Shown here: positions 8 to 60,607 of the stretch, piece by piece
Layout of the letters: every line of letters begins with the position of its first letter
Numbering within the stretch: the first letter of the stretch is position 1
Source of the DNA: Candidatus Alkanophaga liquidiphilum
Lineage (GTDB): Archaea; Halobacteriota; Syntropharchaeia; Alkanophagales; B39-G2
Assembly: GCA_029259535.1 (NCBI GenBank)
Contig: JAPHEF010000001.1
Coordinates: 21,399-85,398 of the forward strand
Direction: 5' to 3'
DNA length: 64,000 nt
Notes under the pieces: model-generated
The model's input: only the letters and a program-made list of their open reading frames with translations
What the model was told of the DNA's origin: nothing
Databases searched by the model: none
Made by a program: the position numbers and the translations under genes

Positions 8-349
8 TTAGCAGCAACATCTTCCTAAAATTTCCTTAATCCTCCCCTCTGCGATTACGACGACGACACCGGCGTTCGTAAGGATTTCAAGCGCTCCTTT
101 TCTGATGCCGCCAGTGATGAGCATGCGCACGCCCGTGCGCACGAGGATTCTCGCCGTTCGTAGGTCTGAAATGTTCGGGCGGAGGGCGCCGCCGGCGCCG
201 AGGCTCGTGTTGCTTGTTATTTTCATATCGTTCATTTCGGGGTCGAGCATGAAGAAGTATATGCTTTTGCCCAGTTCCGGTGCTATTTCAGAATTGATGT
301 CCTTGGACAGCGCTGCTATGCATATCATCACGCTACACCTCGTCGGCAT
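8..349 (-). CDS. NifB/NifX-family (dinitrogenase FeMo-cofactor-binding fold) small protein
   Basis: The 113 aa sequence has a Gly-rich core (ILVRTGVRMLITGGIRKGALEILTNAGVVVVIAEG) typical of the NifX/NafY-like ~110 aa domain. It overlaps the next gene by 17 nt, consistent with an operon. Confidence 0.5.
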   Translation of the reverse strand: MPTRCSVMICIAALSKDINSEIAPELGKSIYFFMLDPEMNDMKITSNTSLGAGGALRPNISDLRTARILVRTGVRMLITGGIRKGALEILTNAGVVVVIAEGRIKEILGRCCC

Positions 350-1442
350 GCCTCCTGCCGCTGGCGGCGGCGCTCACAAGCTCCACAAATCTTAGTATGT
401 CTGCCTTATGTATTATGCCTTTAAAAGTACCATCAGCAAAAACTGCAAGCAGGCTCGTATTATGCTTCAGCATCTCTTTCAGCGCATTTATGGCGTCTTC
501 GTCCTCAGAAATTCGAGGAAGCGGCGTCATCACATCTCGAACTCTTAAGTGCGGACGACGCTCCACAGGCACCTTGCTCACGTCGGCAAACGAAACAAAG
601 CCCCGCACGCCACTATCGTCAGCAACAAGGTAGCCAAGCCGCCGCCCCCAGAACATAAGGTCGAGAAGCTCCGTAAGAGGGAGCTCCGGTGGCACCGCCT
701 CTAAGGCTTCGCTGCGCATCACGTGCTTGACCTTCAAGCCGTCAAGCGCTGCGTGTATGAGCGTGGCGCTTTCCTCCTCGCTAGCGCCGACGTAGATGAT
801 GAAAGCAATGATGATAAGCCAGGGGTTCAAAATTCCAACGAGCGCCATTGCGATGGCGAAAGCCTTGCCGACGAGCGCTGCTTTCTTCGTTGCCACCAGA
901 AACGAGTATTTCCTCGCAAGCATCGCTCTTAAGATGCGTCCGCCGTCCATCGGGAACGCCGGTATTAAATTGAACGCTGCGAGCACGACGTTCAGGTAAC
1001 CAACGCTTAAAATCAATAGCCCCAATGGCAAGTAAGAGCCAAAGCCCAAAATGCGGTAGAAGGCGAGGCACACGCCCCCAATCGCAAAACTCGCCGCAGG
1101 ACCGGCGAACGCAATCCTCGCCTCCTCCCTCGGCTCCTTTGGAATCTCTTCCATCATCGCAATTCCGCCGAAAATGAAGAGGACTATACTGTTTATCTTC
1201 GCTCCGTATTTCATTGCGACGGCGGAGTGCGAAAGCTCGTGCAAGAGGACTGAGGTGAAAAGCAGGATGGTGGCGGCGGTTGAAACCGCATACCTTAATG
1301 CAACGTCATTTATCTCAGCAAAGCCGAAGGGGCGGGGTTGCTGCGCAAAGAGCCACGCGAATAGGGGGAGGACCATAAGAAAAGTCACATGCAACTTCAC
1401 CGGTATTCCCATGACCCTAACGAGCTGTAAGGACGACTTCAT
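333..1442 (-). CDS. Site-2 protease family (M50) zinc metalloprotease with C-terminal CBS-domain pair
   Basis: An HExxH motif sits in a TM helix (LLHELSHS). The N-terminal half is multi-TM. The C-terminal ~120 aa has the CBS-domain pattern. Confidence 0.8.
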   Translation of the reverse strand: MKSSLQLVRVMGIPVKLHVTFLMVLPLFAWLFAQQPRPFGFAEINDVALRYAVSTAATILLFTSVLLHELSHSAVAMKYGAKINSIVLFIFGGIAMMEEIPKEPREEARIAFAGPAASFAIGGVCLAFYRILGFGSYLPLGLLILSVGYLNVVLAAFNLIPAFPMDGGRILRAMLARKYSFLVATKKAALVGKAFAIAMALVGILNPWLIIIAFIIYVGASEEESATLIHAALDGLKVKHVMRSEALEAVPPELPLTELLDLMFWGRRLGYLVADDSGVRGFVSFADVSKVPVERRPHLRVRDVMTPLPRISEDEDAINALKEMLKHNTSLLAVFADGTFKGIIHKADILRFVELVSAAASGRRHADEV

Positions 1443-2578: not shown

Positions 2579-4054
2579 ATGGCGTCGCTGATATATGCAA
2601 AGGATATACCCGAGGCTTACGCGCTGGCAAACAACGAGATACTGGTGAGGGGCGTGGAAGCGGCGTCGGAGCGGGGCAATGTCAAATTTATCAACGACCT
2701 GCTCGTCGTGGTGGAGCGACCGGAAGTGGCGCTCGCCGAAGGCTCGCCGCACGCCTCCCACTTCTCACTTCTTGCAGAGACGCCAAACGAAGTTTGGAGG
2801 ATAGGAGGAGTCACCGGCGTCTTCGAGCGTGAAGAGACTTATGCCGACCGCTTCAGAAAACCCTTAGACCAGATAGGCAAAGGCGTGGAACTAATAAGGA
2901 GGAAGCCGTATTCGAGGAGGTTTTGCGTGAGCGTCGCCCGCCCTTGGGACGTGCTGAGCAGGACTCCGCCCGCTCTCATGGAAATTTACGTGCAGGTTTT
3001 GGAGGCTGCCGACGCGGACGCCGTTGAGCAGGAGGACGGCGGAGGACGCAGACGGGAAGAGCGGAAAGAAGTGCACGTCACCGGCTTTTTCAGGAGCGTT
3101 GACGTTTTCAATTACTTAAATCTGAACCTCAACGGGCTGTGCGAGCTTCAGGAGCTTATTTGCAGGGAAACCGGCTACGAGAAAGGAAGCATCGCTGCCC
3201 ATCTCGTGAATGCCCACTACTACCTCAGGAACGAGCGGCAGGTAGAAAAGGTCACCAGCAGTGCGGAGGCGAGAGCTGCTACTAGGAAAAGTGAGAGAGA
3301 AGCGGTGCGGCTCGGCGGGTTAATAAAGACGGAGCATCTGCCGTCAGGCTGGCGTGAGACTCTTGAGCTCATTTACCGACAAGGACTGCAGACGGAGACT
3401 GAGTGGGGCGAGGTTTTCGAGAGAAAGCGGCGGGCAAAGTTCGCTCACAGGCTTCTTTTAGAAATAGAGCGCCCGTCGGAGGACATGGAGGACGATAAGG
3501 CGCCGTTCACAAGGAAATATCTGGAGGAATATGCGTTGCGTTACGTGCTCGGCACGACAAATTTGCCGGCGACGGAATCCGAAATCCTCTACGAAGAGGG
3601 CGAAGCCTACACCTACGCTTCGAGGGCGAGGTATGAGCCCGCCGACATGGGATTCTTCGAGCTTAAAAAGCCTGTAGACCAACTTTATCACGCCATAGAA
3701 CTTCTTAGGAAGGACAAGAGGACGAGGCGTGCCACAATCGTCATATCGAGACCGTGGGACATTTTGAGTGAAGATCCAGCGTGTTTAAGGGGCTACGTGT
3801 TCCATGCAGATCCGCAAGACCCCGAAGCTCTGAGGATAACGCTGTTCATGCGTTCTAACGACGCCTACGGAGCGACTCTCGCAAACCAGTTTGCGTTCAC
3901 GAGGCTTGCGGAGTTCGTCGCCGCGAAGACGGGCTTCGAGTCCGTGAAATTGACGTTACTGGCGGCGAACATGCACATTTATGAGGACGCTTTTGAATTT
4001 GTTGAAGGCTTGTTGAAGCCGAAGATGCCGTCGTTCGGAGAGTTTTTTAGTTAA
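2579..4054 (+). CDS. Tandem-duplicated thymidylate synthase (ThyA)-fold protein, fused pseudo-dimer
   Basis: The 491 aa protein is two ~245 aa ThyA-like halves. Both halves carry the phosphate-binding RR..W(D/P) motif (RRFCVSVARPWD and RRATIVISRPWD). Both carry the RS.D...N-like segment (RSVDVFNYLNLN and RSNDAYGATLANQF). Only the second half keeps the nucleophile context P-x-C (DPACL); the first has PPAL. Confidence 0.6.
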   Translation: MASLIYAKDIPEAYALANNEILVRGVEAASERGNVKFINDLLVVVERPEVALAEGSPHASHFSLLAETPNEVWRIGGVTGVFEREETYADRFRKPLDQIGKGVELIRRKPYSRRFCVSVARPWDVLSRTPPALMEIYVQVLEAADADAVEQEDGGGRRREERKEVHVTGFFRSVDVFNYLNLNLNGLCELQELICRETGYEKGSIAAHLVNAHYYLRNERQVEKVTSSAEARAATRKSEREAVRLGGLIKTEHLPSGWRETLELIYRQGLQTETEWGEVFERKRRAKFAHRLLLEIERPSEDMEDDKAPFTRKYLEEYALRYVLGTTNLPATESEILYEEGEAYTYASRARYEPADMGFFELKKPVDQLYHAIELLRKDKRTRRATIVISRPWDILSEDPACLRGYVFHADPQDPEALRITLFMRSNDAYGATLANQFAFTRLAEFVAAKTGFESVKLTLLAANMHIYEDAFEFVEGLLKPKMPSFGEFFS

Positions 4055-4323
4055 TTTTCGGTTTTACGATGTTGAATAACGTTCTGCGGTATGCGAAATC
4101 CTGAGCGAGGGCTTGAATGAGCGCCTGCGGGTCACGCTCCACACTGTTAACGATATGATAAAATTCGCATTTATTGCCGCTACAATTGTGCTTAAGAACA
4201 TAGATAAGCAAACCGACATAAAGTTTGGCTGAGGACAACGTGGGCGTGGTATCGGCGAAACTCGCATGTGGTGCCTACTGAAGTTAAAAATGAAGGAGCG
4301 GCGTGGGCGGTTCTGCGCAGGCT

Positions 4324-5451
4324 CTACTCTAAGACTATCTTCTCAAGTAACCTCCAAGACTCGGTATTAAGCTCTTTTGCCTTTAATATTTGGCGTTCGA
4401 GGTTTTCGAGGGCGATGTGGAAAGCGGCGTCGCCGCCGAAGCTCTCACCACGTCCTATGAAAAGTTTTCCGTCCGTCCTCATCCTAATCTTGCAGAAGAT
4501 AAGGGGATGCCTTTTGAAGCGTTCTCCATGTCGTTTGAAGTAAACGTGAACAACCCCCCGCTTCAAGAAGACTCCAAACTTCTCGACGAGCCGCCTTAGC
4601 TCCTTTTCCACGTGCGACCTGTCAAATCTAACGTCACCCGCTGTCAGCTCTAAGAGAAAATCTTCGTCCTTTTCGGCGCCTAACTTCGAAATCGCCTCTA
4701 AGATGTCAGTTTTCGTCACTATTCCGCTAATTTTGTCATCTCTCGTGACGACAAGTCCGGAAATGCCGTTGCTCACCATGAGCTCGACGGCTTTTCTCAC
4801 GACGACGTCCTCAGATATCGTAATGACGCTCTCGGTCATGATGTTTGTAACAGGAATGCCAAGCCTCGGCTTCTTCTCGGAAATAGCGCCTCTCGTGAGC
4901 CTCTTCTTCGGAATGATGGCCATGATGCAATCGTGCATGGTGACTATGCCGACAAGCTTGCCGTCTTTAACGACGGGCGCTCTTGAGATGCCGTGTTCTC
5001 TAAAGGTATTGAGCACGGCGGCGAGCGTGTCATCCTCGCCGACGGTGATGACGTCGGGACTCATAAGCTCGCGGACGGGCACGTCGCCGAACTCGGTATC
5101 CGCGACTGCGAGAAGCAGGGCTTCGTCAGTGACAACGCCGATGAGCTTGCCATTGTTGAAAACGGGCAGATGCTTAAGCTCGTTCTCAAACATGAGGCGA
5201 GCGGCGTCATGGATGCTCGTCTCAGGCGATATTTTCGGCGCCCTTTTTGCCAGGGTCTTTACCTTTGTCCTAGGGTCTCGAAACGCCCTCACGATTATGC
5301 GTTCCGTGAGGATTCCGATGTATTTACCGTCCTTGAAAACTATGAGCACGTCCACGTTGTCGTTCTCCCTGAACTTTGAAAGCGCCCTCGAAAGCGTCTC
5401 CTCAGCGTTTATACTCTCGTAATTCTCCGTGAGCAACTCCCGAACTTCCAT
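4324..5451 (-). CDS. CBS-domain (x4) protein with C-terminal ribosome-hibernation-factor (RaiA/HPF, S30AE)-like domain
   Basis: Four CBS-like repeats are followed by a ~100 aa tail. The tail reads HVYFKRHGE...CKIRMRTDGKLFIGRGESFGGDAAFHIALENLERQILKAKE and matches the HPF/RaiA pattern, including the conserved LERQ. Confidence 0.55.
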   Translation of the reverse strand: MEVRELLTENYESINAEETLSRALSKFRENDNVDVLIVFKDGKYIGILTERIIVRAFRDPRTKVKTLAKRAPKISPETSIHDAARLMFENELKHLPVFNNGKLIGVVTDEALLLAVADTEFGDVPVRELMSPDVITVGEDDTLAAVLNTFREHGISRAPVVKDGKLVGIVTMHDCIMAIIPKKRLTRGAISEKKPRLGIPVTNIMTESVITISEDVVVRKAVELMVSNGISGLVVTRDDKISGIVTKTDILEAISKLGAEKDEDFLLELTAGDVRFDRSHVEKELRRLVEKFGVFLKRGVVHVYFKRHGERFKRHPLIFCKIRMRTDGKLFIGRGESFGGDAAFHIALENLERQILKAKELNTESWRLLEKIVLE

Positions 5452-5561
5452 AACAAAGAGTGCGCCGATGGTATAATAAAAGCTATGTAGGGCTTTGAGG
5501 GAGATACACGCCCCTGCTCAACAAGCGCTTATCATTTGCCAAAACGCGAGCGAGCTGATAT

Positions 5562-6563
5562 TCAATATGCTTCCAAACACTCCCAGCGCAGCCCTGTCAG
5601 GACGCCCACGAGTTTTGCGACGTAGCTGCCAAGTGGCTCGTTACCAGCACGAGCGTCGATGATGGCGTTCTGCGTGCCCTTAAGCGCGTCGAACATCATT
5701 CGCTCTATGACCTCATTGAACTCCTCGACTGTGAGCCCCATGCCCACCGAGAACATGAAGGTGAGCGTTACGATGGCGCCGGCGGCGGCGTCGCTACGGG
5801 CTTTCAGCAACAGGTCCTGTTGTGATACGTAAATTTCGGTCTTCGTCAATCCGAATTTCAAAAACGGCACGCAAAGCCCCTTTAAAAGCTCCTTCGTCAG
5901 TTTGTAATGCGGGTTCACAAGGAATAAGGTCTCCGAAATGGCTTTTATGACGTCTGCGGCGATGGCGCTCGCCAGCCTGTGCCGTGGCAGCGGGACGTCC
6001 GGCACGTTTTCAAAAATTCTGCCCTCATCCAAGACGACGACGGCGTCTGCGCTCTCCCGTAGCTGTTCTATTTCTTTTTTGGCTAATTCCATCTTAAGAC
6101 CCTCGGAAGGGAGCGTGACGAAAGCAACGGCGGTGGCGCCTTGCTCCTTTGCAGCATCTAAGGCGACGGACGCCATGCTGGTATCAAGCTCGTGCGCTGC
6201 GTGTGCCGTGACAAAGACCACATCAAAGTTATCGAGATGTGGAACCAACCCCTCTTTCAAAGACCTGATGGCATTAGCGTAGCACGCCTCGGGCATGTTC
6301 TGCCGGAATAACGCCTTCTCAAGCCTTATATTCCTGTCGGCTTTCGTCTTCTTTAACTGACGCTTGTCGGCGATAGCGACGGTTTCCACGCATTTCGGCG
6401 TTCTCTCGATGATGCGGCGTAACGTTCTACAACCGGATTCTCCGCAGCCGACAACCGCCACTCTCGACACACCGAGCACCTCAGGGCGCTCCACCTCAGC
6501 GACGCTGTATCCCTCTTTGACGAAAAGCAGTCTTTTCGCCCCGAACATTTGCACCAGTATCAC
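5562..6563 (-). CDS. FtsZ/tubulin-superfamily paralog with degenerate GTP-binding (T4) and catalytic (T7) loops
   Basis: The T1-like loop VAVVGCGESG is present. Around the T4 position the sequence aligns with FtsZ [26 protein letters not shown] as FVTAHAAHELDTSMASVALDAAKEQG. The T7 NVDFADV region is replaced by LVNPHYKLT. Confidence 0.55.
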   Translation of the reverse strand: MILVQMFGAKRLLFVKEGYSVAEVERPEVLGVSRVAVVGCGESGCRTLRRIIERTPKCVETVAIADKRQLKKTKADRNIRLEKALFRQNMPEACYANAIRSLKEGLVPHLDNFDVVFVTAHAAHELDTSMASVALDAAKEQGATAVAFVTLPSEGLKMELAKKEIEQLRESADAVVVLDEGRIFENVPDVPLPRHRLASAIAADVIKAISETLFLVNPHYKLTKELLKGLCVPFLKFGLTKTEIYVSQQDLLLKARSDAAAGAIVTLTFMFSVGMGLTVEEFNEVIERMMFDALKGTQNAIIDARAGNEPLGSYVAKLVGVLTGLRWECLEAY

Positions 6564-6639: not shown

Positions 6640-7968
6640 ATGGGGGAGCTCATCTTGCTCGTCGGCTTTTCGCTCGTAGGCACGCTCATCGGTTTCTTCA
6701 CAGGCCTAATTCCTGGCATTCACGTGAATAACGTTGCGTTCACGCTTCTGACGCTGTCCCCAGCTATTTTTCGCATCATTGAAGGCTCGCCGCTGCCGCA
6801 AGGCTTTTTGCCGTTGTGCGTCGCATCTTTGGTGATCTCGGCATCCGTCGCTCATACCTTCTTGAGCTTTATTCCCACCGCCTTCTTCGGCGCCCCCGAG
6901 GGAGACACAGCCCTTTCCCTCCTTCCTGCGCACCACATGCTCCTTGAGGGGCGTGGCTACGAAGCCGTGTCGCTATCCGCAGTTGGGAGCTTTTGCGCTG
7001 TCGTCTCGGCGTTTCTACTGCTTCTCCCCTTTAAGTTTGTGTTTTCGGCGCCTCTGCACTTTTACGGCATACTGGACGCCGTCCTACTCTTTCTCCTACT
7101 GGGAATCTCGGCATTGCTTATCCTGACTGAAAGCTTTAACGAAAGACTTATGCCGATGCAAGCGGTCCTTTTAGCGCTTCTCGTTTTCATGTTATCTGGA
7201 GCGTTAGGGTATTCGATTCTGAATACGGAGCTTATGAACATCAGCAACGGTCTTTTCAATTCTTATCGAGTTTCTCTGCTCTTCCCAGCCCTCACGGGGC
7301 TTTTCGGCGTTGCATCTTTGCTGTATTCAGCGGCGCACGCCCCAGACATACCGGCACAGGTGTTAAAGGAGCCTGAAATTAATAAAAGCGAGCTTACGAA
7401 GTCAATAGCGGCAGGCACGCTTTTCGGAAGCGTCGTTGGTTTTCTTCCGGGAATCACGGCGGCGCATGCGACGGTATTTGCGATGCTCGCCCGTCGTAAC
7501 AGAGCGCCGGAGCAAATAATTCTAACACTCAGCAGCGTTAATACCGCCAACGCGATTTTCTGCACCGCTGCACTCTTTTTAATTCTGAAGCCAAGAAGTG
7601 GTGCGCTCATTGCGGTGAGCGAGCTCATAAGCGTAGAGCCTTGGGGAGGGATAATTCCACCACTGAGCCTCTGCTACCTCCTCATCTCAGTTCTGGTGGC
7701 GAGCTTCTTTTCCTATTTCGCAACAATGCTCGTGGGTAGACGACTCTCCGCAATTTTCACAAGGCTACCATACCAGCTTGTGGTCTTTGGCATTCTGACG
7801 CTGCTTTTCGCTCTCGTTTTTTTGTTTAATGGTGTTTTTGGCATGCTTGTCATGCTCGTTGCGACGTGCATAGGTCTTGTGCCCATTTATTTGGGCGTGC
7901 GGCGTTCGCACTGCATGGGAGTGTTACTGCTGCCGATAATCTTGTTCTATGCTAATATTTCACTGTAA
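6640..7968 (+). CDS. TctA/DUF112-family polytopic membrane protein
   Basis: The protein is highly hydrophobic with two internal repeats carrying a G..TGLIPGI / GFLPGIT motif, typical of the TctA duplication. Confidence 0.5.
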   Translation: MGELILLVGFSLVGTLIGFFTGLIPGIHVNNVAFTLLTLSPAIFRIIEGSPLPQGFLPLCVASLVISASVAHTFLSFIPTAFFGAPEGDTALSLLPAHHMLLEGRGYEAVSLSAVGSFCAVVSAFLLLLPFKFVFSAPLHFYGILDAVLLFLLLGISALLILTESFNERLMPMQAVLLALLVFMLSGALGYSILNTELMNISNGLFNSYRVSLLFPALTGLFGVASLLYSAAHAPDIPAQVLKEPEINKSELTKSIAAGTLFGSVVGFLPGITAAHATVFAMLARRNRAPEQIILTLSSVNTANAIFCTAALFLILKPRSGALIAVSELISVEPWGGIIPPLSLCYLLISVLVASFFSYFATMLVGRRLSAIFTRLPYQLVVFGILTLLFALVFLFNGVFGMLVMLVATCIGLVPIYLGVRRSHCMGVLLLPIILFYANISL

Positions 7969-9104
7969 ACACCAAGCGTCATTTTTGCGACATTATCCCA
8001 AGAGAAGAACTTTGCGGCTTTTCTGCCGTTTTCGCCCATCCTGCGTGCATGTTCGAAATTTGAAAATATTTCTTTGATGCCCCAGCTTATTGATTGTGGA
8101 TTGTCGTAAACCCTAAGCCCATTGATGCCGTGCTTGACGTATTCGAAGCCGTTCTGCGTCACGATTATCGGCTTACGGGCAGCCCACGCTTCGAGGGCGA
8201 CTATGCCGAAGGGCTCATTCCTTGAAGGTATGCAGACGACATCGCACGCCTTATACCACTTCCCGAGGTAATCTTCAGAAACATAGCCAAGGAACCTCGT
8301 AGCGTGCGCCACGCCCAGCTCCCACGCCCGACGTTCGAGCCAAGGACGCATGTGCCCGTCGCCTATGAACACGAACTTTGCATCCGGGAATTCTATCAAG
8401 ACAGAGGGGACCGCCTCTAAGAGTAAATCAGGCCCCTTCTGCACGACCATCCTGCCGACAAACAAGCAGACCGGGTCCCAGACACCAATACTGAGCCACC
8501 TTTTGACCTCCCAAGGGTCAACAGGCACGTCAAACTTATGCAACGAGACGCCGTTTGGAATTACTGCAATTTTCCAATCTTCGAACTTATAAATGCGCTT
8601 TATTTCCTCTTTCAGCGTCTGCGACGTCGTAATTATCTTGTTGGCGACGAAGCCGCCATACCATTCCAAATTCCGGATATGCCATGATTGCCCCTCATGG
8701 AAGGCATTACCGCACCGCCCGTATTCTGTGGAGTGCAGCGTGAACACGGTCCTCTTTCCGCGGGCGTTTTTTATCTCTGCGAGCGCGTTTGCGGTCATCC
8801 AGTCGTGACCATGAATTATGTCGAAATGCCCTGCGATGTTTTCCGTTTCAAAGAAATGCCAAGCGAAAGAGCGGCACATGTTGTTCATCTCCCCCACGAA
8901 GTTGGAGTTCAAATCGAAAGGGCATCGGTGGTAATGGACGCGGTCAATGACCTCATACTGCGGCTGCCCGTGCCCCATCCTCGTAAACACGTGAACCTCG
9001 TTTCCCAGCCTTTCAAGCGCAGCAGCGAGCTCCGTCACGTGGACGGCGACGCCTCCAACTTTGATGGAATGTAAAGATTCCCAACTGAACATTGCGATTC
9101 TCAT
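7947..9104 (-). CDS. glgA: Glycogen synthase (GT5-type, archaeal GlgA)
   Basis: MRIAMFSWESLHSIKVGGVAVHV matches the glycogen/starch synthase N-terminal KVGGL motif. The start was chosen at ATG 9104 (MRIAMF) rather than the longer ORF start at 9305. This sits 17 nt downstream of the NDP-sugar pyrophosphorylase gene. Confidence 0.8.
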   Translation of the reverse strand: MRIAMFSWESLHSIKVGGVAVHVTELAAALERLGNEVHVFTRMGHGQPQYEVIDRVHYHRCPFDLNSNFVGEMNNMCRSFAWHFFETENIAGHFDIIHGHDWMTANALAEIKNARGKRTVFTLHSTEYGRCGNAFHEGQSWHIRNLEWYGGFVANKIITTSQTLKEEIKRIYKFEDWKIAVIPNGVSLHKFDVPVDPWEVKRWLSIGVWDPVCLFVGRMVVQKGPDLLLEAVPSVLIEFPDAKFVFIGDGHMRPWLERRAWELGVAHATRFLGYVSEDYLGKWYKACDVVCIPSRNEPFGIVALEAWAARKPIIVTQNGFEYVKHGINGLRVYDNPQSISWGIKEIFSNFEHARRMGENGRKAAKFFSWDNVAKMTLGVYSEILA

Positions 9105-9120
9105 TTCCAACCCTGACTTC

Positions 9121-10605
9121 CTAACCAGCTCTCGGCGTTGAGTCCCGAATCTCAGCATTCGCATCCACGGCTTCGTCTCTGACCGCAGCGGCGAGGCGTC
9201 TTCGTAGAATCTCGATGAGGAGCGTCCTCGCACGTTCGCCTTTAACGCCACGCACCGCCTCTGCCAGCTTTTTCTCGCCAAAGATATGGCAAATCCACTC
9301 AGCAAAATCGTTAGTGCTGTTCCTAAGATGGTATTTTATTGAGCGTTCGTCAATAATTTTGAGAATTTCGACCAGCTCCTCAATGCTGTATGCCACGAAT
9401 CCGGTGTGGCGGACGGTGCCGTCGTCGTCCTGCAAGTTGAAGTAGAAAGCTTCTTCTTCAGGAACTCGACGGAGGAGCTTGTTCTTAAGCGGGGTCTTCG
9501 GGCGGGCGTGCTCGAACCTGACGAAGCGTCGCAGCTCGCCCTTGAGCTTCGAACCGTAGGAGAGGCTGACAAACGGCCAAACCTTACCCTCAGCGAGGAC
9601 AGCATCGTAGATGCTGCAATAAGGACCGACGACCGAATCCACGACTCTGGCGCCACTCCTTACCATTGAGCTTTCGCCGATGATGCTGCACTTCACATAT
9701 GCGGAAGCGATTTCAGAATCTTCGAATAGCACAGATGCATGCAGCTCGGCGGACTCGACGACCGCACCCTCGCCGATGACGGTGGGTCCGTAAATAACGG
9801 CATCGGCAACAACTGCGCCCTCGCCTATGAAAACATCTCCGTATATCTCAGCGTCTCGCAGCTCTGCATCATCGACTGCGGCAACGGGAGTGCCGCCAGC
9901 ACGCTTTTTCAGGAGCCAAGCCACCGCCCGCATGTAGCCATCGGGCTTGCCGACGTCCACCCAGAAGCCCTTGACCTCGCAGCCGTAAAGTTCGCCTTCT
10001 TGTGCCAAAATCGGGAACAAGTCCTTTGAGAAATCAAAAGAACATCGCTCAGGCACATACTCCAAAACGTCGGGCTCAATCACGTAAAGCCCTGTGTTTA
10101 TCAGATTGCTAAAACACTCTTCGGGTCTGGGCTTCTCCTTAAACCTCTTTACTACGCCCTCCTCATCTATTTCCACAATCCCATAATGGTAAGGGTCGTC
10201 CACGTGCATCAGAGCTATCGTGGCGAGGCGTCCATGCTTCTTGTGGAACTTAATAAGCTCTTTTAAGTTTATATCGGTGATGTTGTCGCCTTGAATTATG
10301 ACGGCGGTCTCGTCGAGACCGGCATTCTTGACGGAGCCTGCAGTGCCCAGCGGCTCCGGCTCTTCAGGATACGAGAGTTTAAGGTTTTTTGCCTCCCCAC
10401 ATTTGCTAAGATGCTCAATTATCATCTCCCGTAGGTAGTTCGTAGTGATGGTTATGCTTTTTATGCCATGTATCTTCAGATACTTGACAATATGCTCTAA
10501 TATTGGCTTATCGACCAGCGGGAGCAGAGGCTTCGGCCTCGTGAATGTCAAGGGGCGAAGCCTCGTTCCAAAACCACCCGCGAGAATCACAGCTTTCGAC
10601 GTCAT
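9121..10605 (-). CDS. Sugar-1-phosphate nucleotidyltransferase (NDP-glucose pyrophosphorylase) with left-handed beta-helix and ~110 aa C-terminal extension
   Basis: The N-terminal AVILAGGFGTRLRPLT motif (G-x-G-T-R) is present. Hexapeptide-repeat region is present. An extra C-terminal domain has no obvious match. Adjacent to glgA. Confidence 0.8.
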   Translation of the reverse strand: MTSKAVILAGGFGTRLRPLTFTRPKPLLPLVDKPILEHIVKYLKIHGIKSITITTNYLREMIIEHLSKCGEAKNLKLSYPEEPEPLGTAGSVKNAGLDETAVIIQGDNITDINLKELIKFHKKHGRLATIALMHVDDPYHYGIVEIDEEGVVKRFKEKPRPEECFSNLINTGLYVIEPDVLEYVPERCSFDFSKDLFPILAQEGELYGCEVKGFWVDVGKPDGYMRAVAWLLKKRAGGTPVAAVDDAELRDAEIYGDVFIGEGAVVADAVIYGPTVIGEGAVVESAELHASVLFEDSEIASAYVKCSIIGESSMVRSGARVVDSVVGPYCSIYDAVLAEGKVWPFVSLSYGSKLKGELRRFVRFEHARPKTPLKNKLLRRVPEEEAFYFNLQDDDGTVRHTGFVAYSIEELVEILKIIDERSIKYHLRNSTNDFAEWICHIFGEKKLAEAVRGVKGERARTLLIEILRRRLAAAVRDEAVDANAEIRDSTPRAG

Positions 10606-22895: not shown

Positions 22896-24575
22896 ATGCC
22901 CGGGCGTGCAGAAGAGATTTGGATTGAGAAATACCGCCCTAAGACGCTCGACGAGATTGTAGGGCAGGAGGAAATCGTCAGAAACCTCAAGTCCTACGTT
23001 AAAGCGGGAAACATGCCGCATCTCATCTTTTCAGGACCCGCAGGCGTCGGGAAGACGGCAGCGGCAGTAGCGCTCGCCAGGGAGTTTTTCGGCGACGCCT
23101 ACGAAGAGAACTTCACCGAATTAAATGCATCGGTGACGCCTGAGACCGTCTTAGTGCTGCGTGCCGGCGGCAATATAACGAGTTTGAGTTTCAAGGAGCT
23201 TGACAAGCTGATTTTTGGAGATGACAAGGAAGAAGAATATGCAATATTACAAGGGGTCGAAGTCCTCTCGGTGGCAGATTACAAAATCAAATTCATGCCC
23301 GTCTCGGCGGTTGCAAGGCACAAAGCCGAACGTATTTTGAGAATAAAGCACGAGGGCGGGGAAATAAGCGTCACCCCTGACCATTCTTTAATCGTAATCA
23401 CTGAGAGCGGAGCTCTCGCTTCAAAACCCGCCGCAGAAGTGGAAACTGGCTCGTTTCTGATCTCCTTCTGCGATGGCGGCGGCAAGCTCCCCGCAGAACC
23501 CCTCTTGAATTTCCTCAGGAACGCAAACGCTGTAAGTTGGCATTTGAGCAACGTATGCAGCGCCGCCGACACCATTGAGAAATCGAAGATGTTGGGTGCC
23601 ATTAGGTCGGTTAACGCTAAGGAACTACACGAGGGAGAACAAAAGACCTTTGAGACGCTTAGGAAGCTTGCAAGCTCTAAGCTTCACGTCTTAAAAGTCA
23701 AGGACGTGAAAGAGATGAGCTACGACGGCTGGGTTTACGACGTGGGCGTCCCACGCACCGAGATGTTTTGGGGTTTCGCCGCTAACGGCAGAGTCACGTC
23801 TGTGATGGCGCCGCCCGTTTTGCTGCATAATTCAGACGAACGGGGCATAGATGTCGTGCGCAACAACATAAAGAATTTTGCGAGGATGATGGCCGTCGGC
23901 GGGAAGTTTAAGATAATTTTCCTTGACGAGGCTGACGCTCTCACCGACGCCGCCCAGTCCGCCTTAAGAAGGACGATGGAGCGCTACTCCGCAACGTGCA
24001 GGTTCATCTTCAGCTGCAACTACTCTTCAAAGATAATAGAGCCGATACAGTCGAGGTGCGCAGTTTATCGATTCAAGGCACTCCCCTATGACGCCATAAA
24101 GAAAAGGCTTCTCTACATTGCAAAGCAGGAACGCCTTAAGATTTCGGAGGAGGTCATAAAGGCGATATATGACGTTGCGGGTGGCGACATGCGACGAGCG
24201 ATAAATGCGCTGCAGAGCGCCGCCGCAGTGAGCAAGGAAATAACGCCAGAAATCATATACAATATCACGGCGACGCCGAGTCCCGAGGTGGTGGAGGCGC
24301 TGATAAGAAAAGCGTTATATGAAGATTTCTTTGAAGCTCTTGAGATGCTTAACACGCTTCTGGACGAGAAGGGCGTGGCGCCCGACGAGTTGCTTACACA
24401 GATGCATAAAACACTTTTGAATATGGAAATACCACCCGAAAAGAAGGTTTATTTGATAGACAGGATAGGAGAAGTGGATTTTAGGATTGCGGAGGGGGCG
24501 AACGAGCGAATTCAGCTTGAGGGGCTGCTCGCATTCTTTCACCTTTATGGAGGGCAGCGAGCTGGGGGCGTTTGA
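22896..24575 (+). CDS. rfcS: Replication factor C small subunit containing an in-frame intein
   Basis: The exteins give the canonical RFC small subunit. Walker A GPAGVGKT precedes ELNA|(intein)|SDERGIDVVR. The downstream RFC boxes follow (DEAD-like FLDEAD, SRC). Extein length is ~325 aa. Confidence 0.85.
   Translation: MPGRAEEIWIEKYRPKTLDEIVGQEEIVRNLKSYVKAGNMPHLIFSGPAGVGKTAAAVALAREFFGDAYEENFTELNASVTPETVLVLRAGGNITSLSFKELDKLIFGDDKEEEYAILQGVEVLSVADYKIKFMPVSAVARHKAERILRIKHEGGEISVTPDHSLIVITESGALASKPAAEVETGSFLISFCDGGGKLPAEPLLNFLRNANAVSWHLSNVCSAADTIEKSKMLGAIRSVNAKELHEGEQKTFETLRKLASSKLHVLKVKDVKEMSYDGWVYDVGVPRTEMFWGFAANGRVTSVMAPPVLLHNSDERGIDVVRNNIKNFARMMAVGGKFKIIFLDEADALTDAAQSALRRTMERYSATCRFIFSCNYSSKIIEPIQSRCAVYRFKALPYDAIKKRLLYIAKQERLKISEEVIKAIYDVAGGDMRRAINALQSAAAVSKEITPEIIYNITATPSPEVVEALIRKALYEDFFEALEMLNTLLDEKGVAPDELLTQMHKTLLNMEIPPEKKVYLIDRIGEVDFRIAEGANERIQLEGLLAFFHLYGGQRAGGV
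23130..23831 (+). other. Intein (~234 aa) inserted in RFC small subunit between ELNA and SDERGID
   Basis: The intein begins with Ser (block A SVTPETVLVL) and has block B TPDH. It ends ...VLLHN followed by the Ser +1 extein residue. No clear LAGLIDADG motif was seen. Confidence 0.7.
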
Positions 24576-55405: not shown

Positions 55406-56200
55406 ATGGAACTTGAGTTCTTATACAGCGGCGATTTTGGCAACGTCGTCATCGGCAACCTCGTGAATTATTCGACGTTCTGCCGAGCATGTGGGGAAGC
55501 GTGCGTAGAATGCCGAGTGGGCTGGAGCCATGCAGATAGCATCACGGCTGCCGTGAGCCTGCCGCCGCCCGAGAGCCTGCCCCATTTCTTAGACGCTCCC
55601 GAGAGCTTCTTGCTCGACTTAATCCCGGCAGACGTGCTCATAGCGATAAACATCCATCCTGACGTGCTCTTAAGTTTACCCAAACGTCTTGAGGAGCTTG
55701 GCGTTTGCGCTTTGATAGTTCCTGCTGAGAGCCCAAGGGAGCTGCCCGTGGGCGTCAGGCAGCAGCTAAAGGACGCTTGCGAGATGCATGGTGTCGAATA
55801 CGCCTTTCCGAAGCCGTTCTGCGCCTTAGACCCCAGGGACCCTGTAGTCAGCCGCTTTAAAACCGTGAGGCGCTTCGTCGAAGACTTTGGCGTCGGCAAG
55901 CCGGAACTGCGGATCTCGTTAAAAAGCGGAGCTATAAGCAGCGCTGAGGTCCTGCGGAGCGCCCCCTGCGGCTCTACATGGTTTGTCGCTCGGAAAATAA
56001 TAGGATTTAGGGCGCCGACCGACGCCGACGACGCTGCATTGCGCGAGCTGTTTGACGCGATTTCAAAAGCGCATCATTCTTACCCTTGCACGGCGAGCAT
56101 GGAGCTCGACAAGGAGCTCGGAGATACTGTCCTTCACAAAGCTGGATATCTGATTAGAGAAGCTATCCTTAAGGCCTTAAACGTAGAAATGCCCCTTTGA
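55406..56200 (+). CDS. Hypothetical Cys-rich protein (compact CxxCx3CxxC motif; possibly DUF166-like)
   Basis: An N-terminal FCRACGEACVEC cluster is present. No other recognised motifs were found. This is the last gene of the cooS-linked, same-strand run. Confidence 0.4.
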   Translation: MELEFLYSGDFGNVVIGNLVNYSTFCRACGEACVECRVGWSHADSITAAVSLPPPESLPHFLDAPESFLLDLIPADVLIAINIHPDVLLSLPKRLEELGVCALIVPAESPRELPVGVRQQLKDACEMHGVEYAFPKPFCALDPRDPVVSRFKTVRRFVEDFGVGKPELRISLKSGAISSAEVLRSAPCGSTWFVARKIIGFRAPTDADDAALRELFDAISKAHHSYPCTASMELDKELGDTVLHKAGYLIREAILKALNVEMPL

Positions 56201-56265
56201 CATCCGAGAGGTAAACCTAAAATTTTTATATTTTAGTTATCCCAACAAAACAAGGGGGAGGGAGT

Positions 56266-56583
56266 ATGTACACGTCTTTCCTGCAATATGACCCCAGAGT
56301 TGTTCGCTCCTTGAAACGGAGCAGGGTCAGGGTTGCTATTTTATTATATCTCAACAAAATATACCCGAACATGTCTTATCCGGCGGAAATCGCTCGGAAT
56401 ATAGGAATCGACGCGACGAACGTGCTCGGCGGGCTCAGGGGCATGGGCAGTAGATATAACGGCTCCAGCTCCCTCGTGGAGCTCGGGCTTGTTGATAAGG
56501 TAGATATAAACGGCGTCAGTTATTACAAGCTCTCGAAAATAGGCAAGCAGGTCGTAGACATCTTAGAGTCCTCTCTATTTTAA
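56266..56583 (+). CDS. Small winged-helix DNA-binding protein (putative regulator)
   Basis: The 105 aa protein has a wHTH-like core (YPAEIARNIGIDATNVLGGLRGM...LVELGLVD). It lies in the low-GC island. Confidence 0.4.
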   Translation: MYTSFLQYDPRVVRSLKRSRVRVAILLYLNKIYPNMSYPAEIARNIGIDATNVLGGLRGMGSRYNGSSSLVELGLVDKVDINGVSYYKLSKIGKQVVDILESSLF

Positions 56584-56593
56584 GGGATGCGCT

Positions 56594-57535
56594 ATGAATA
56601 AGTTAATAACCGATATTGGCAACAGTATTGAAGCTGCTACGAGATTCGTTAAAGGCTATATAATATCTATAGGCTCTGTCACCAATATTTTCAGTGCTAT
56701 AGAAAACAACATACAAACGGTTGACGACATCGCTGAGGAATATGGCTATAGGAACAAGAGGCTCCTAAAGTTGTATTTGGATATTTTGTGCTCGTATTCC
56801 ATATTGAAAAAGGAAAATTCGAAATACTTCTTGGTCGATGGTGTGAATATAAGATTGGAGAAGCGAGATTTCATGCTCGATAAGATGAAAGAAGATCTCA
56901 TAAGCTTTTTTATGTCTTTGATAAACGTTTTTCCCCATCTGCTCATCGACCCGAACAACCCACTTGCCACCACCGACTTCGAAAGAGATGCTAATATCTG
57001 GAGCATTTGGTTGGAAAATGATTGGTTCAAGTCAGTAAGGTGGGCTATAACAGAAATAGGAAGAATAGGCAAGAGAGATTACATCTTGGACATGGGCAGC
57101 GGCTCCGTTTCCCCGCTATACTTTGCAGAAATCGTTGGTGAGAATGGGAGGGTTACAGGGCTGGACAAGTCCAAAAAAATGGTGGAAATCGCAAGGACGA
57201 AGATAGAAAACCGGGGGTATTCATGGGTCGAGATGGAGCACTGCGATATCGAAAACGATGTGGGGTTGGACGAAGAATACGACATCGTTATTCTTTCGAT
57301 GGTATTAGAATACGTGCATAATATGGAAAAAGTTATCGAAAATGCATACAACGCCCTGAAGGACGGCGGTAGGCTGATAATATTTAAAATGCCAGACAAT
57401 CCCATCATAAATTTTACAGAAGCACTAATACCGCAATTTGTTAAGCTGCGGACCACGAGAGAGATAAAAGAAGTTTTGACAAAAGTCATAGTCAAAGAGT
57501 ATGGAGACCTACTTATAGTTGCTCATAAGTATTAA
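56594..57535 (+). CDS. Class I SAM-dependent methyltransferase with N-terminal winged-helix/dimerisation domain (O-methyltransferase-like)
   Basis: Motif I is ILDMGSGSVSPL, with an acidic residue after beta2 (VTGLD) and motif IV (DIVILSMV). The N-terminal ~170 aa are a helical/wHTH domain. GC is ~38%. Confidence 0.7.
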   Translation: MNKLITDIGNSIEAATRFVKGYIISIGSVTNIFSAIENNIQTVDDIAEEYGYRNKRLLKLYLDILCSYSILKKENSKYFLVDGVNIRLEKRDFMLDKMKEDLISFFMSLINVFPHLLIDPNNPLATTDFERDANIWSIWLENDWFKSVRWAITEIGRIGKRDYILDMGSGSVSPLYFAEIVGENGRVTGLDKSKKMVEIARTKIENRGYSWVEMEHCDIENDVGLDEEYDIVILSMVLEYVHNMEKVIENAYNALKDGGRLIIFKMPDNPIINFTEALIPQFVKLRTTREIKEVLTKVIVKEYGDLLIVAHKY

Positions 57536-57621
57536 TAATTTATGTATATACAACATGCATATACGCCTACATATTCACTTATACATCTCGTTTTATCAGA
57601 TACAGCCCTCTAAGAGCGTTT

Positions 57622-58209
57622 GTGATAGGGCTTGGGCTGTTGAATACACCACAGCATTACACTGTTATTACTTTTGCAGCTATTGGTGCAGGACTTAAAT
57701 TCATAGACGATACTTTCGATGAAAACGTTTTTGACAAGAGGTTTGCGGGCGTCGTTGCTCCTGCGCTGGTAATAATGGCGTTAATCATGTCCGCAAACGA
57801 TACGGCAGCTGCGACCCTCCTACTTTCAATACTTCTAGCGGTTATTTTTGCGGGCAAGGTCGATAATTTGGTATTCAAGGTTAATGCTTTTGTTTTTTTG
57901 GTGTTGTTCTGCGTCACTGCCTCTTTTAACCTACTATGGTTTCATTTAGCTATTTTAACCGCCGCAGGCATCATTGATGAAAGAGGCAATGATTATATTG
58001 ATTCCCAACATGATACGTCCAAATTTTTGAGGGCATTCTTTGCTCATAGGTGCATGATGAAGGTCAGCATGCTGCTTTTATGCGCTTTTTCACCGCTTTC
58101 GTGGCTTTATTTCTTTGCACTTTTAGCTTTTGACGCGGCTTATGATTCTGTGAAATGGCTTTCTGACTGTAAAAAGGAGAGAAAAGGCGTTACAGCTACG
58201 GAGTCTTGA
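57622..58209 (+). CDS. Hypothetical polytopic membrane protein
   Basis: There are 5-6 TM helices and no recognisable domain. It lies in the low-GC island and ends 6 nt from the tRNA-Ala 3' end. Confidence 0.4.
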   Translation: MIGLGLLNTPQHYTVITFAAIGAGLKFIDDTFDENVFDKRFAGVVAPALVIMALIMSANDTAAATLLLSILLAVIFAGKVDNLVFKVNAFVFLVLFCVTASFNLLWFHLAILTAAGIIDERGNDYIDSQHDTSKFLRAFFAHRCMMKVSMLLLCAFSPLSWLYFFALLAFDAAYDSVKWLSDCKKERKGVTATES

Positions 58210-58214
58210 ATCTA

Positions 58215-58286
58215 TGGACCGGTCGGGATTTGAACCCGAGGCCTCTCGCACGCCAAGCGAGCGATCTTCCGCTGATCTACCGGCCC
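58215..58286 (-). tRNA. tRNA-Ala (anticodon GGC)
   Basis: The minus-strand sequence is GGGCCGGTAGATCAGCGGAAGATCGCTCGCTTGGCGTGCGAGAGGCCTCGGGTTCAAATCCCGACCGGTCCA. It folds as a cloverleaf with 7-bp acceptor, D and T arms (GGTTCAAATCC). The anticodon loop is TTGGCGT and the G3:U70 Ala identity pair is present. CCA is not encoded. Confidence 0.85.
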
Positions 58287-58451
58287 GTGTGGGCGTTATC
58301 AATCACACTTCGCCGCTTATCGTTTAAAAATTTAACGATTGCAAAAAGTATTTGTCCGACATCCGACCCAAATACGACGAAGGCAAATTCTCTTTTCCTT
58401 TCTTAAACAAGTTTTTATAGGGTCTGAGCGTCTTTTATACTGGGGTTGTGA

Positions 58452-59504
58452 ATGCCAGAGGAGATGAGTCATAGGGAGAGGTTGTTTGCGGCGTTCGAGC
58501 GGAGTTCTTATGACCGGGCGCCGTGTCCGGGGATTACGCAGACCGGGACGGTCGAGCTGATGGAGGCGAGCGGCGCTTTCTTCCCGGAGGTGCATTGGGA
58601 CGCTGAGAAGATGGCGAAGCTGGCGTGGGCGGCTTTCGAACATGCCGGACTCGAAGGCATCCGTGTCCCGTTCATCATTTACACCGAAGCGCTCGCCGTC
58701 GGCACTGAGCTTTTCAAATGGGAGAAGGACAACATGCCGATGGTGAAAAAATACCCATTCAGTAGCGTCGAGGAGGCTGCCGAGAAGTTAGAAGTCCCGA
58801 ATCCGAGAGAAGCTGAGAGCATGCGGGTTGTGCTGGACGCCATCGAGCTCTTAAAGCCAAAATGCGATGCTGAGAAGCTACCGCTGACCGGGCACGCCGT
58901 TGGCGCATTCCTCTTAGCCTTTGGCGTCGTGGATTTCATGAACGCCATGATAGCATTCAAGAAGAGCCCTGAAAGCTTTAGGGAAATCTGGGAGAAGACA
59001 AAAGAGCTTGTAATAACGTGGTCGGAGGCAATGATTGACGCCGGCGCCGACGTCATTTTTTACAACTGCGCAGCGCTCGGCAACTTCAGACCCGACGACT
59101 ACGAAAAACACGGGTTTTCTATTGACCGGGAGTGCATACGGAAAATAAAGGAAAAGGGGGCTTATGTGCTGGTCCACGTCTGTTCGGACATAAGGCCGGT
59201 GCTGGACCACGTGGTGAAGTTAGGGGCGGATGCTATTTCCGTGTCGGAAGTGGTGAAGATGGAGGATATTAGGAAGCGGGTCGGCGACGACGTCACGCTG
59301 ATGGGGAACGTGAACCAAGTATTCACGCTGATAAAGAGGGGGCCTGAGGAGGTCATGGCGGAGGCGAAGGCGTGTATAGAGGCGGGGACGGACATTCTGG
59401 CGCCGGGGTGCGGTTTCGGGACGAAGACGCCGCTCGCAAACATGCGTGCGATGGTGGATGCGGCTAAGAAATATGGGCACCTCGCCAGACTCGCTGGGAA
59501 ATAA
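58452..59504 (+). CDS. MtaA/MtbA-like methylcobamide methyltransferase (MT2; uroporphyrinogen-decarboxylase fold, Zn-dependent), paralog 1
   Basis: The 350 aa protein has URO-D-like N-terminal RERLFAA...RAPCPGITQTGTVELMEA. Zn-ligand contexts are VHVCSD (H-x-C) and APGCGFG. Confidence 0.75.
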   Translation: MPEEMSHRERLFAAFERSSYDRAPCPGITQTGTVELMEASGAFFPEVHWDAEKMAKLAWAAFEHAGLEGIRVPFIIYTEALAVGTELFKWEKDNMPMVKKYPFSSVEEAAEKLEVPNPREAESMRVVLDAIELLKPKCDAEKLPLTGHAVGAFLLAFGVVDFMNAMIAFKKSPESFREIWEKTKELVITWSEAMIDAGADVIFYNCAALGNFRPDDYEKHGFSIDRECIRKIKEKGAYVLVHVCSDIRPVLDHVVKLGADAISVSEVVKMEDIRKRVGDDVTLMGNVNQVFTLIKRGPEEVMAEAKACIEAGTDILAPGCGFGTKTPLANMRAMVDAAKKYGHLARLAGK

Positions 59505-59546
59505 TGCGGAAGAATTAAAACAGCGTCAGAATAAACAGGTGGTTGT

Positions 59547-60605: not shown

Positions 60606-60607
60606 AA

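Follow-up and report, generated by a model that had tools for sequence, protein, structure and literature searches.

Organization of the hibA locus

The gene of interest is a complete open reading frame on the reverse strand (Table 1) of a 64-kb window, by which we mean the whole stretch of DNA that was analysed. Its product is very probably orthologous to the ribosome hibernation factor HibA (Hib/AHA) of archaea and appears to be expressed from a stand-alone transcription unit, and the gene is referred to as hibA below. The frame was found exactly as given in the preliminary description, and its translation includes the string ...VHVYFKRH...CKIRMRTDGKLFIGRGESFGGDAAFHIALENLERQ... that was quoted there. 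The product consists of four CBS domains that are followed by a basic C-terminal domain, where the pI was observed to change from 6.2 in the CBS module to 9.4 in the C-terminal domain.

Table 1. Coordinates of the features assigned to the hibA locus (positions in the window)
Feature	Coordinates	Strand	Basis or remark
Very probable hibA/AHA ortholog, complete CDS	4324..5451	-	ORF listing; ATG start, 375 aa, TAG stop 4324-4326
[quoted passage not shown]
CBS3 nucleotide-site motif GIVTMHD, residues 168-174, Thr171/Asp174 pair	4930..4950	-	homolog alignment
Basic CBS3-CBS4 loop, residues 181-199, PKKRLTRGAISEKKPRLGI, net charge +6	4855..4911	-	aligns with Pa-HibA ~187-207
CBS4 nucleotide-site motif GIVTKTD, residues 243-249, Thr246/Asp249 pair	4705..4725	-	homolog alignment
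HPF/RaiA-like domain, residues 262-375, folded core 265-360, pI 9.4	4327..4668	-	
Archaeal-specific insertion in the beta2-beta3 hairpin, residues 311-317, RFKRHPL	4501..4521	-	alignment with Pa-HibA
LERQ motif of the last helix, residues 351-354	4390..4401	-	aligns with KLERQ of E. coli RaiA
TATA-like box TTTTATTATA (putative promoter)	5472..5481	-	centred ~25 nt upstream of the ATG; sequence read directly
T5 run (possible oligo-T terminator)	4286..4290	-	34-38 nt past the hibA stop; sequence read directly

An FtsZ-like open reading frame (5562..6563, reverse strand) is located 110 bp upstream of hibA. It scores 45 bits with the Pfam Tubulin family and its best PDB match is M. jannaschii FtsZ1 (E 3.4e-18). 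The alignment shows that GGAGNN is changed to GESGCR, GGGTGTG to AHELDTS and the T7 motif NVDFAD to NPHYKL. As the GTP-binding and T7 motifs are replaced, this frame may fairly be read as GTPase-dead, and the placement of hibA downstream of a GTPase-dead FtsZ paralog on the same strand, as described earlier, is borne out.

The short distance between the two genes and their common strand could be taken as a sign of a two-gene module that couples division or cell-shape arrest to ribosome silencing, in which an FtsZ-like protein devoid of the T1, G-box and T7 motifs could serve as a regulatory or scaffold protein. We consider such a module highly improbable. When synteny was compared on metagenome contigs carrying orthologs (three orthologous contexts), no FtsZ-like gene was observed beside the orthologs with 80%, 48% and 43-44% identity. 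The first of these is located between carB and fdhB/fdhA on three independent contigs, the second adjoins an M50 peptidase gene and the third is found between ruvCAB and a thermosome gene. Furthermore, hibA has a TATA-like box of its own whose spacing to the ATG is as expected, and neither FtsZ nor an operon is mentioned in the two papers on the family (PMC13324472, PMC12934967). The adjacency therefore looks incidental, and an operon of hibA with the FtsZ-like gene was rejected on the absent synteny and the TATA-like box. The link to FtsZ made at the outset was over-committed, since an adjacency that is missing at three orthologous loci carries no visible functional weight. Hardly any credence is given to a hibA-FtsZ paralog unit of this lineage in which ribosome hibernation is tied to a signal from the cytoskeleton or division or, as a separate matter, to a short-loop clade that lacks the uS19-contact insertion and binds the ribosome differently from Pa-HibA; the adjacency and the small indel are all that speaks for them.

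The TATA-like box is a putative independent promoter that would give rise to a leaderless or near-leaderless hibA mRNA, and inspection of the sequence ahead of the ATG revealed no visible Shine-Dalgarno sequence. On the other side of the gene, the T5 run is a possible candidate for an archaeal oligo-T terminator, and the next gene downstream (2579..4054) is located on the forward strand and is convergent with hibA. We infer from these features that hibA is transcribed on its own, probably as a leaderless mRNA.

The rest of the window appears as an ordinary archaeal chromosome. Its genes include a thermosome gene, an intein-containing RFC, TmcA, a valyl/isoleucyl-type tRNA synthetase, a NOG1-type GTPase and three tandem URO-D/MtaA-like genes. 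When the window was scanned with Rfam, one tRNA and no rRNA were returned, and no second CBS-tetrad gene was found in the window.

The C-terminal domain and the assignment to the HibA/AHA family

The preliminary description had assigned the C-terminal ~100 residues, with their LERQ helix, to the S30AE/HPF pattern and had proposed a profile search against Pfam Ribosomal_S30AE as a check. This assignment proved to be real, though borderline at the sequence level. The outcome of the profile search depends on the length of the query, where the isolated C-terminal 113-114 residues score 24.5-24.6 bits with PF02482 (E 4.5e-5), just above the gathering cutoff of 23.7, but the whole protein scores 20.9 bits and falls below it. 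Run on a single sequence, the proposed check would give a marginal outcome. Among 21 non-redundant C-terminal domains of family members, 14 match PF02482 at E<0.01. The NCBIfam equivalog for HPF/YfiA (TIGR00741) scores 13.8 bits against a cutoff of 40.9 and so does not reach its threshold.

Profile searches with the family domain point in the same direction. Against PDB sequences, the two leading matches are both archaeal (9l96_a, E 1.5e-30; 9sr9_H, E 5e-27) and among the next-ranked matches bacterial chains of HPF, RaiA and YfiA are over-represented (E-values of 0.03-0.4). A comparison of the family profile with E. coli RaiA in hhalign gave a probability of 79% and an E-value of 1.6e-5 over the beta3-beta4-alpha2 region, with LERQ common to both; this comparison is supportive only and the conclusion on the domain does not depend on it. 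The LERQ motif is itself well conserved among the 42 homologs aligned, with L351 present in 39, E352 in 41 and R353 in 36 of them. In the archaeal-specific insertion RFKRHPL, L317 was observed to be kept in 41 of 42 homologs.

A structural model was also obtained. From one sequence alone AlphaFold gave a poor model (pLDDT 48), and this was replaced by an AF2 model built from the 42-sequence alignment, which was good (pLDDT 84.6). Matches to the full-length model in Foldseek were dominated by CBS tetrads. Since an S30AE match was obtained and a loss of the fold, with its order beta-alpha followed by beta-beta-beta-alpha, was not observed, the domain call stands.

The assignment to HibA is carried by the full-length comparison. 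In a phmmer search, residues 2-364 match residues 5-377 of P. abyssi HibA (9SR9 chain H) with an E-value of 1.2e-67, and the C-terminal domain alone matches the same chain at E 2.5e-11. A second solved homolog, 9L96, is matched over the full length at E 2.8e-41. 9SR9 is the 'HibA-ATP' structure, and 9SRA-9SRF and 9T7H are P. abyssi HibA-70S complexes (Madru et al., Nat Commun 2026, PMC13324472); chain H of 9SR9 is deposited in the PDB as 'Dehydrogenase'. The entries 9L96, 9L98, 9L9C and 9L9V hold a 406-aa 'CBS domain-containing protein' that belongs to the same family as HibA/AHA, and a literature search on the PDB code 9L96 found no attributed paper. HibA and the AHA of Haloferax are one family, for which the authors of an independent 2026 preprint on AHA write 'AHA/Hib' (PMC12934967). 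Its hallmarks are kept in the 375-aa protein, namely the CBS3-CBS4 loop, Thr/Asp pairs restricted to CBS3 and CBS4, the second insertion, the LERQ motif and the basic C-terminal domain.

A database search returned ~52 full-length homologs with lengths of 375-413 aa and the same architecture. The best matches are from a 'Methanomicrobia archaeon' (80% identity) and a 'Halobacteriota archaeon' (48%), and haloarchaeal family members show 29-35% identity. The identity to the members that have been characterised is modest. The contigs of representative genomes were also scanned with the single protein, where the sole match was an irrelevant actinobacterial CBS fragment.

Every one of these homologs is named 'CBS domain-containing protein' in the databases, with CBS alone as its precomputed Pfam annotation. 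Together with the sub-threshold S30AE score of the whole protein and the weak NCBIfam matches that the CBS region gives to PrdR, HhpR and others, this naming would suit a generic CBS-tetrad regulator (HhpR-like, or a subunit of an enzyme or transporter) in which the likeness to HPF arose by chance and which has no ribosomal role. The homology to HibA, both over the full length and over the C-terminal domain alone, effectively refutes such a regulator, and we regard it as extremely unlikely. An AcuB-like protein, an IMPDH/CBS-enzyme fragment and an HhpR-like transcription regulator were each set aside as candidates, as their NCBIfam scores are far below the cutoffs and come from the CBS region only.

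The product of hibA is therefore an ordinary member of an already-known family and its architecture is not new. HibA and AHA have been published with exactly this architecture, so both the architecture and the proposed function are already known. A survey of 4026 archaeal genomes reports HibA in 47% of them (PMC13324472), and for AHA 3,160 homologs are reported in 2,723 of 6,968 archaeal species (PMC12934967). With HibA/AHA in ~40-47% of the surveyed archaeal genomes or species, the earlier remark that archaea are not usually credited with HPF-type factors is outdated. The raw-sequence reading nevertheless matched three cryo-EM studies of 2025-2026, in which a bacterial-type HPF/RaiA domain, fused to an AMPK-gamma-like CBS tetrad, hibernates archaeal ribosomes; this match shows that the reading was sound, and what is gained is one more HibA/AHA ortholog. 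For annotation, the frame should read ribosome hibernation factor HibA/AHA. This is useful because the existing entries are labelled 'CBS domain-containing protein' and S30AE is missed when the whole protein is scanned with Pfam.

The CBS tetrad, ribosome hibernation and adenylates

The four CBS domains that had been described were confirmed with Pfam PF00571 (E 1.9e-53, four stretches). By homology, residues 1-261 would form the module that binds the 50S subunit and adenylates. An intact and conserved Thr/Asp pair of the G-h-h-T-x-x-D motif was observed in CBS3 and CBS4 only, where the position of the aspartate is taken by Ile52 in CBS1 and by Ala111 in CBS2. In the CBS3 motif, G168 is invariant and D174 is found in 39 of 42 homologs. 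The CBS4 motif is conserved more fully, with G243, T246 and D249 present in 42/42 homologs and K247 in 39/42. The nucleotide sites of HibA and AHA are located at the CBS3/CBS4 interface (PMC13324472, PMC12934967), and the restriction of the Thr/Asp pairs to these two domains agrees with the AMP/ATP site(s) published there. In related CBS tetrads, the ARC factors, AMP is coordinated by Thr/Asp pairs, and the pattern of the 375-aa protein also agrees with this published logic. The CBS3/CBS4 interface is predicted to bind AMP, probably in preference to ATP.

The basic segment PKKRLTRGAISEKKPRLGI between CBS3 and CBS4 is, from its alignment, the predicted counterpart of the 'PTC loop' of HibA and of 'loop 3' of AHA. 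Conservation among homologs reaches at least 90% for its flanking residues G188 and P200. In the AF2 model, residues 183-192 have a pLDDT below 50 and the loop is the sole internal segment of low confidence, as is expected for a loop that becomes ordered only when bound to the ribosome.

[quoted passage not shown] The CBS module of HibA was observed at three positions on the 50S subunit (the PTC, uL5 and the L1 stalk), and its long loop, residues 190-207, wraps a universally conserved PTC adenine (PMC13324472). The demonstrated role of the HibA CBS tetrad is the occupation of tRNA sites on the 50S subunit (PMC13324472, PMC12934967). HibA blocks translation in P. abyssi cell extract but the isolated CBS module does not, and the inhibition requires the C-terminal domain (PMC13324472). 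In T. barophilus, deletion of hibA lowers stationary-phase 70S by ~60% and doubles the regrowth lag (PMC13324472), and an AHA knock-out of H. volcanii recovers more slowly from stationary phase (PMC12934967).

As two homologs over the full length, HibA of P. abyssi and AHA of H. volcanii, are ribosome hibernation factors, the ribosome-silencing role suggested in the preliminary description appears to be right by analogy. Its account of the CBS modules stood with regard to the architecture but did not foresee their binding to the 50S subunit (at the PTC, P/E and L1-stalk sites, with the loop entering the PTC).

By the same analogy, the C-terminal domain would act as the plug of the 30S mRNA/tRNA channel. 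The basic HPF/RaiA-like domain would sit at the A and P sites of this channel and would be the part needed for translation inhibition. The tethered CBS tetrad would fill the vacant tRNA space on the 50S subunit, where the long basic CBS3-CBS4 loop could enter the peptidyl-transferase centre. Under starvation or stress, an empty and inactive 70S ribosome may then be kept assembled by both modules, with its active sites protected, so that regrowth would be faster.

The preliminary description went further and called the factor energy-charge-gated. This would require an adenylate switch, in which ribosome binding is permitted by AMP or ADP on the CBS tetrad and the factor is released by ATP, so that silencing is gated by the adenylate ratio. 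Several observations are consistent with such a switch. CBS3 and CBS4 retain conserved, intact Thr/Asp pairs for nucleotide binding, and the Kd values of Pa-HibA are 12 uM for AMP, 65 uM for ADP and 113 uM for ATP (PMC13324472). Native AHA complexes carry two AMP molecules at CBS3/CBS4, and the abundance of AHA is constant across growth phases (PMC12934967), which suggests post-translational control. In addition, related CBS-tetrad factors of the ARC type leave ribosomes upon addition of ATP. However, this ATP-triggered release was demonstrated for the ARC factors only, and these are HPF-less. Saturating AMP or ATP leaves the ribosome binding of HibA and its three conformations essentially unchanged, native P. 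abyssi HibA complexes are nucleotide-free and translation is not inhibited by the CBS module in isolation (PMC13324472). Both papers on the family pose nucleotide control as a question (PMC13324472, PMC12934967). We therefore regard the switch as a tentative reading that is somewhat doubtful for this protein. Nucleotide gating in the HibA/AHA family is plausible but unproven, and the term energy-charge-gated was over-committed for what is a hypothesis only, given that AMP and ATP have no effect on the ribosome binding of HibA (PMC13324472). Whether adenylates gate ribosome engagement is a question for the whole HibA/AHA family, and to advance it is beyond the reach of one window.

Comparison with known systems

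The CBS part alone resembles the eukaryotic AMPK gamma subunit and archaeal MJ1225, which have the same four-CBS disc fold (Foldseek probability 1.0, TM ~0.6) at a sequence identity of ~20%. Adenylate sites with Thr/Asp pairs at CBS3/CBS4 are a feature common to these proteins and the hibA product, but AMPK gamma and MJ1225 have neither an HPF domain nor a ribosome role, and their partners are kinase subunits.

Other archaeal hibernation factors, made of CBS tetrads that stand alone or are duplicated, also differ in the C-terminal region. SriA-D of Methanosarcina (9ZNF, 9ZNG and 9ZNI), ARC-A and ARC-P of Methanolobus and Dri of Pyrobaculum (9E6Q and 9E7F) are all without an HPF/RaiA domain. 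They bind the ribosome in other orientations or at other sites, and their phyletic distribution and that of HibA/AHA largely complement each other (PMC13324472, PMC12934967). Matches to Sri chains span only residues ~1-255 of the 375-aa protein, in which the HPF/RaiA-like domain is present in addition.

With bacterial HPF, RaiA (YfiA) and plastid PSRP1, the protein would share its site on the 30S subunit, as judged from its homology to HibA and AHA. The sequence similarity to bacterial HPF/RaiA is borderline and the hairpin is extended here by the archaeal-specific insertion. Bacterial HPF occurs as a stand-alone protein of ~95-115 aa or as long HPF, whereas the domain described here is the C-terminal third of 375 residues and follows four CBS domains; the C-terminal dimerisation domain of long HPF is absent. 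Archaeal and bacterial HPF domains have been found to form separate clades (PMC12934967).

The closest agreement is with the HibA/AHA family itself. The residues of the CBS3/CBS4 nucleotide sites are conserved both here and in the AHA/9L96 group. In family members of 405-407 aa (29-30% identity), the CBS3-CBS4 loop differs in that its insertion is acidic or Gly-rich and far longer. In contrast to the HibA proteins of Thermococcales, the 375-aa protein comes from an uncultured lineage that is Halobacteriota-like as judged from the names of its nearest homologs, and it is known here from its sequence. It is shorter than Pa-HibA (392 aa) and its CBS3-CBS4 loop is slightly shorter as well. The second archaeal-specific insertion of Pa-HibA (324-KFRGVHL-330), which contacts uS12, is present here as 311-RFKRHPL-317 (PMC13324472). 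For the first insertion of Pa-HibA (283-SAL-285), the one that binds the tail of uS19, the pairwise alignment places a gap of four residues in the protein described here, and the ribosome contacts may therefore differ in detail. Deletion of both insertions from the HPF domain of HibA left its in vitro activity unchanged (PMC13324472), so this gap is a minor difference and the insertions are no strict criterion of the family. P. abyssi HibA (Q9UYR4) and the T. barophilus protein (F0LKU5) have the same organization as the protein encoded here, with a CBS tetrad of ~260-270 aa followed by an HPF/RaiA-like C-terminal domain.

Annotation of the HibA/AHA family and a second solved member

The archaeal ribosome hibernation factors HibA/AHA, including the product of the window ORF 4324..5451 (hibA), are affected by an annotation gap. 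CBS is the only precomputed Pfam domain in every one of the full-length homologs (P0001-P0052) found in the 5.8-billion-protein database, and their NCBI-sourced names read 'CBS domain-containing protein', with 'RaiA' added in a few JGI entries. The S30AE domain scores below threshold in a scan of the whole protein and above it in a scan restricted to the C-terminal domain.

A second family member with a solved structure is chain a (406 aa) of PDB entries 9L96, 9L98, 9L9C and 9L9V, which is deposited simply as 'CBS domain-containing protein'. This chain matches the window hibA protein over its full length (E 2.8e-41) and the C-terminal profile with an E of 1.5e-30. No papers citing these four entries were found in our literature search.

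Genes surrounding hibA

In the FtsZ/tubulin-like ORF located upstream of hibA, all three GTP-related motifs are replaced relative to M. jannaschii FtsZ1: GESGCR is found in place of GGAGNN (T1), AHELDTS in place of GGGTGTG (signature motif) and NPHYKL in place of NVDFAD (T7). Its Pfam Tubulin score is 45 bits, and its TIGR00065 score of 76 bits compares with a cutoff of 295. This gene is not syntenic with hibA orthologs at other loci.

The Thymidylat_synt matches in the ORF on the opposite strand are strongest within residues 341-480, and its product has the look of a ThyA-like protein that was duplicated or fused. This ORF is about twice the normal length and is convergent with hibA. The window itself has an M50 site-2 protease gene (333..1442), and M50 peptidase genes also adjoin or lie near the hibA orthologs on two metagenome contigs (L006 and L005), and this recurring proximity is probably coincidental.

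With its listed TTG start, the GT4 glycosyltransferase ORF shares about 185 nt with the NTP-transferase ORF upstream of it. Translation probably begins at an internal Met instead, near '...MRIAMFSWESL', so that the mechanically called ORF is likely over-extended.

Features of the window outside hibA
Feature	Position	Strand	Remarks
M50 site-2 protease	333..1442	-	C-terminal CBS pair
Thymidylat_synt-matching ORF, 491 aa	2579..4054	+	two Thymidylat_synt stretches
FtsZ/tubulin-like ORF, 333 aa	5562..6563	-	Pfam Tubulin, TIGR00065
GT4 glycosyltransferase ORF	7947..9305	-	ORF listing; overlapping pair with next
NTP-transferase ORF	9121..10605	-	ORF listing
Unassigned ORF, 409 aa	20778..22007	-	flanked by riboflavin kinase and Sir2 genes; no Pfam match at E<1e-5
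Replication factor C small subunit with intein	22896..24575	+	Intein_splicing match
SAM-methyltransferase ORF	56594..57535		within low-GC segment
195-aa ORF	57622..58209		within low-GC segment; no Pfam match
tRNA	58215..58286	-	within low-GC segment; sole tRNA in window
Three tandem URO-D family paralogs	58452..61663	+	Pfam

Distal genes and the low-GC segment

The Intein_splicing match in the replication factor C small subunit covers residues 123-293 and is located between RuvB_N/AAA segments. Further along, the local GC content at 56001..58300 is 0.425 compared with about 0.53 in the remaining window, and this segment may mark one boundary of an integrated element. The URO-D paralogs, each 350-352 aa long, match the family with E values of 1e-56 to 1e-64 and resemble methyltransferases of the MtaA/MtbA type, a likeness that hints at a methylotrophic metabolism in the source organism.
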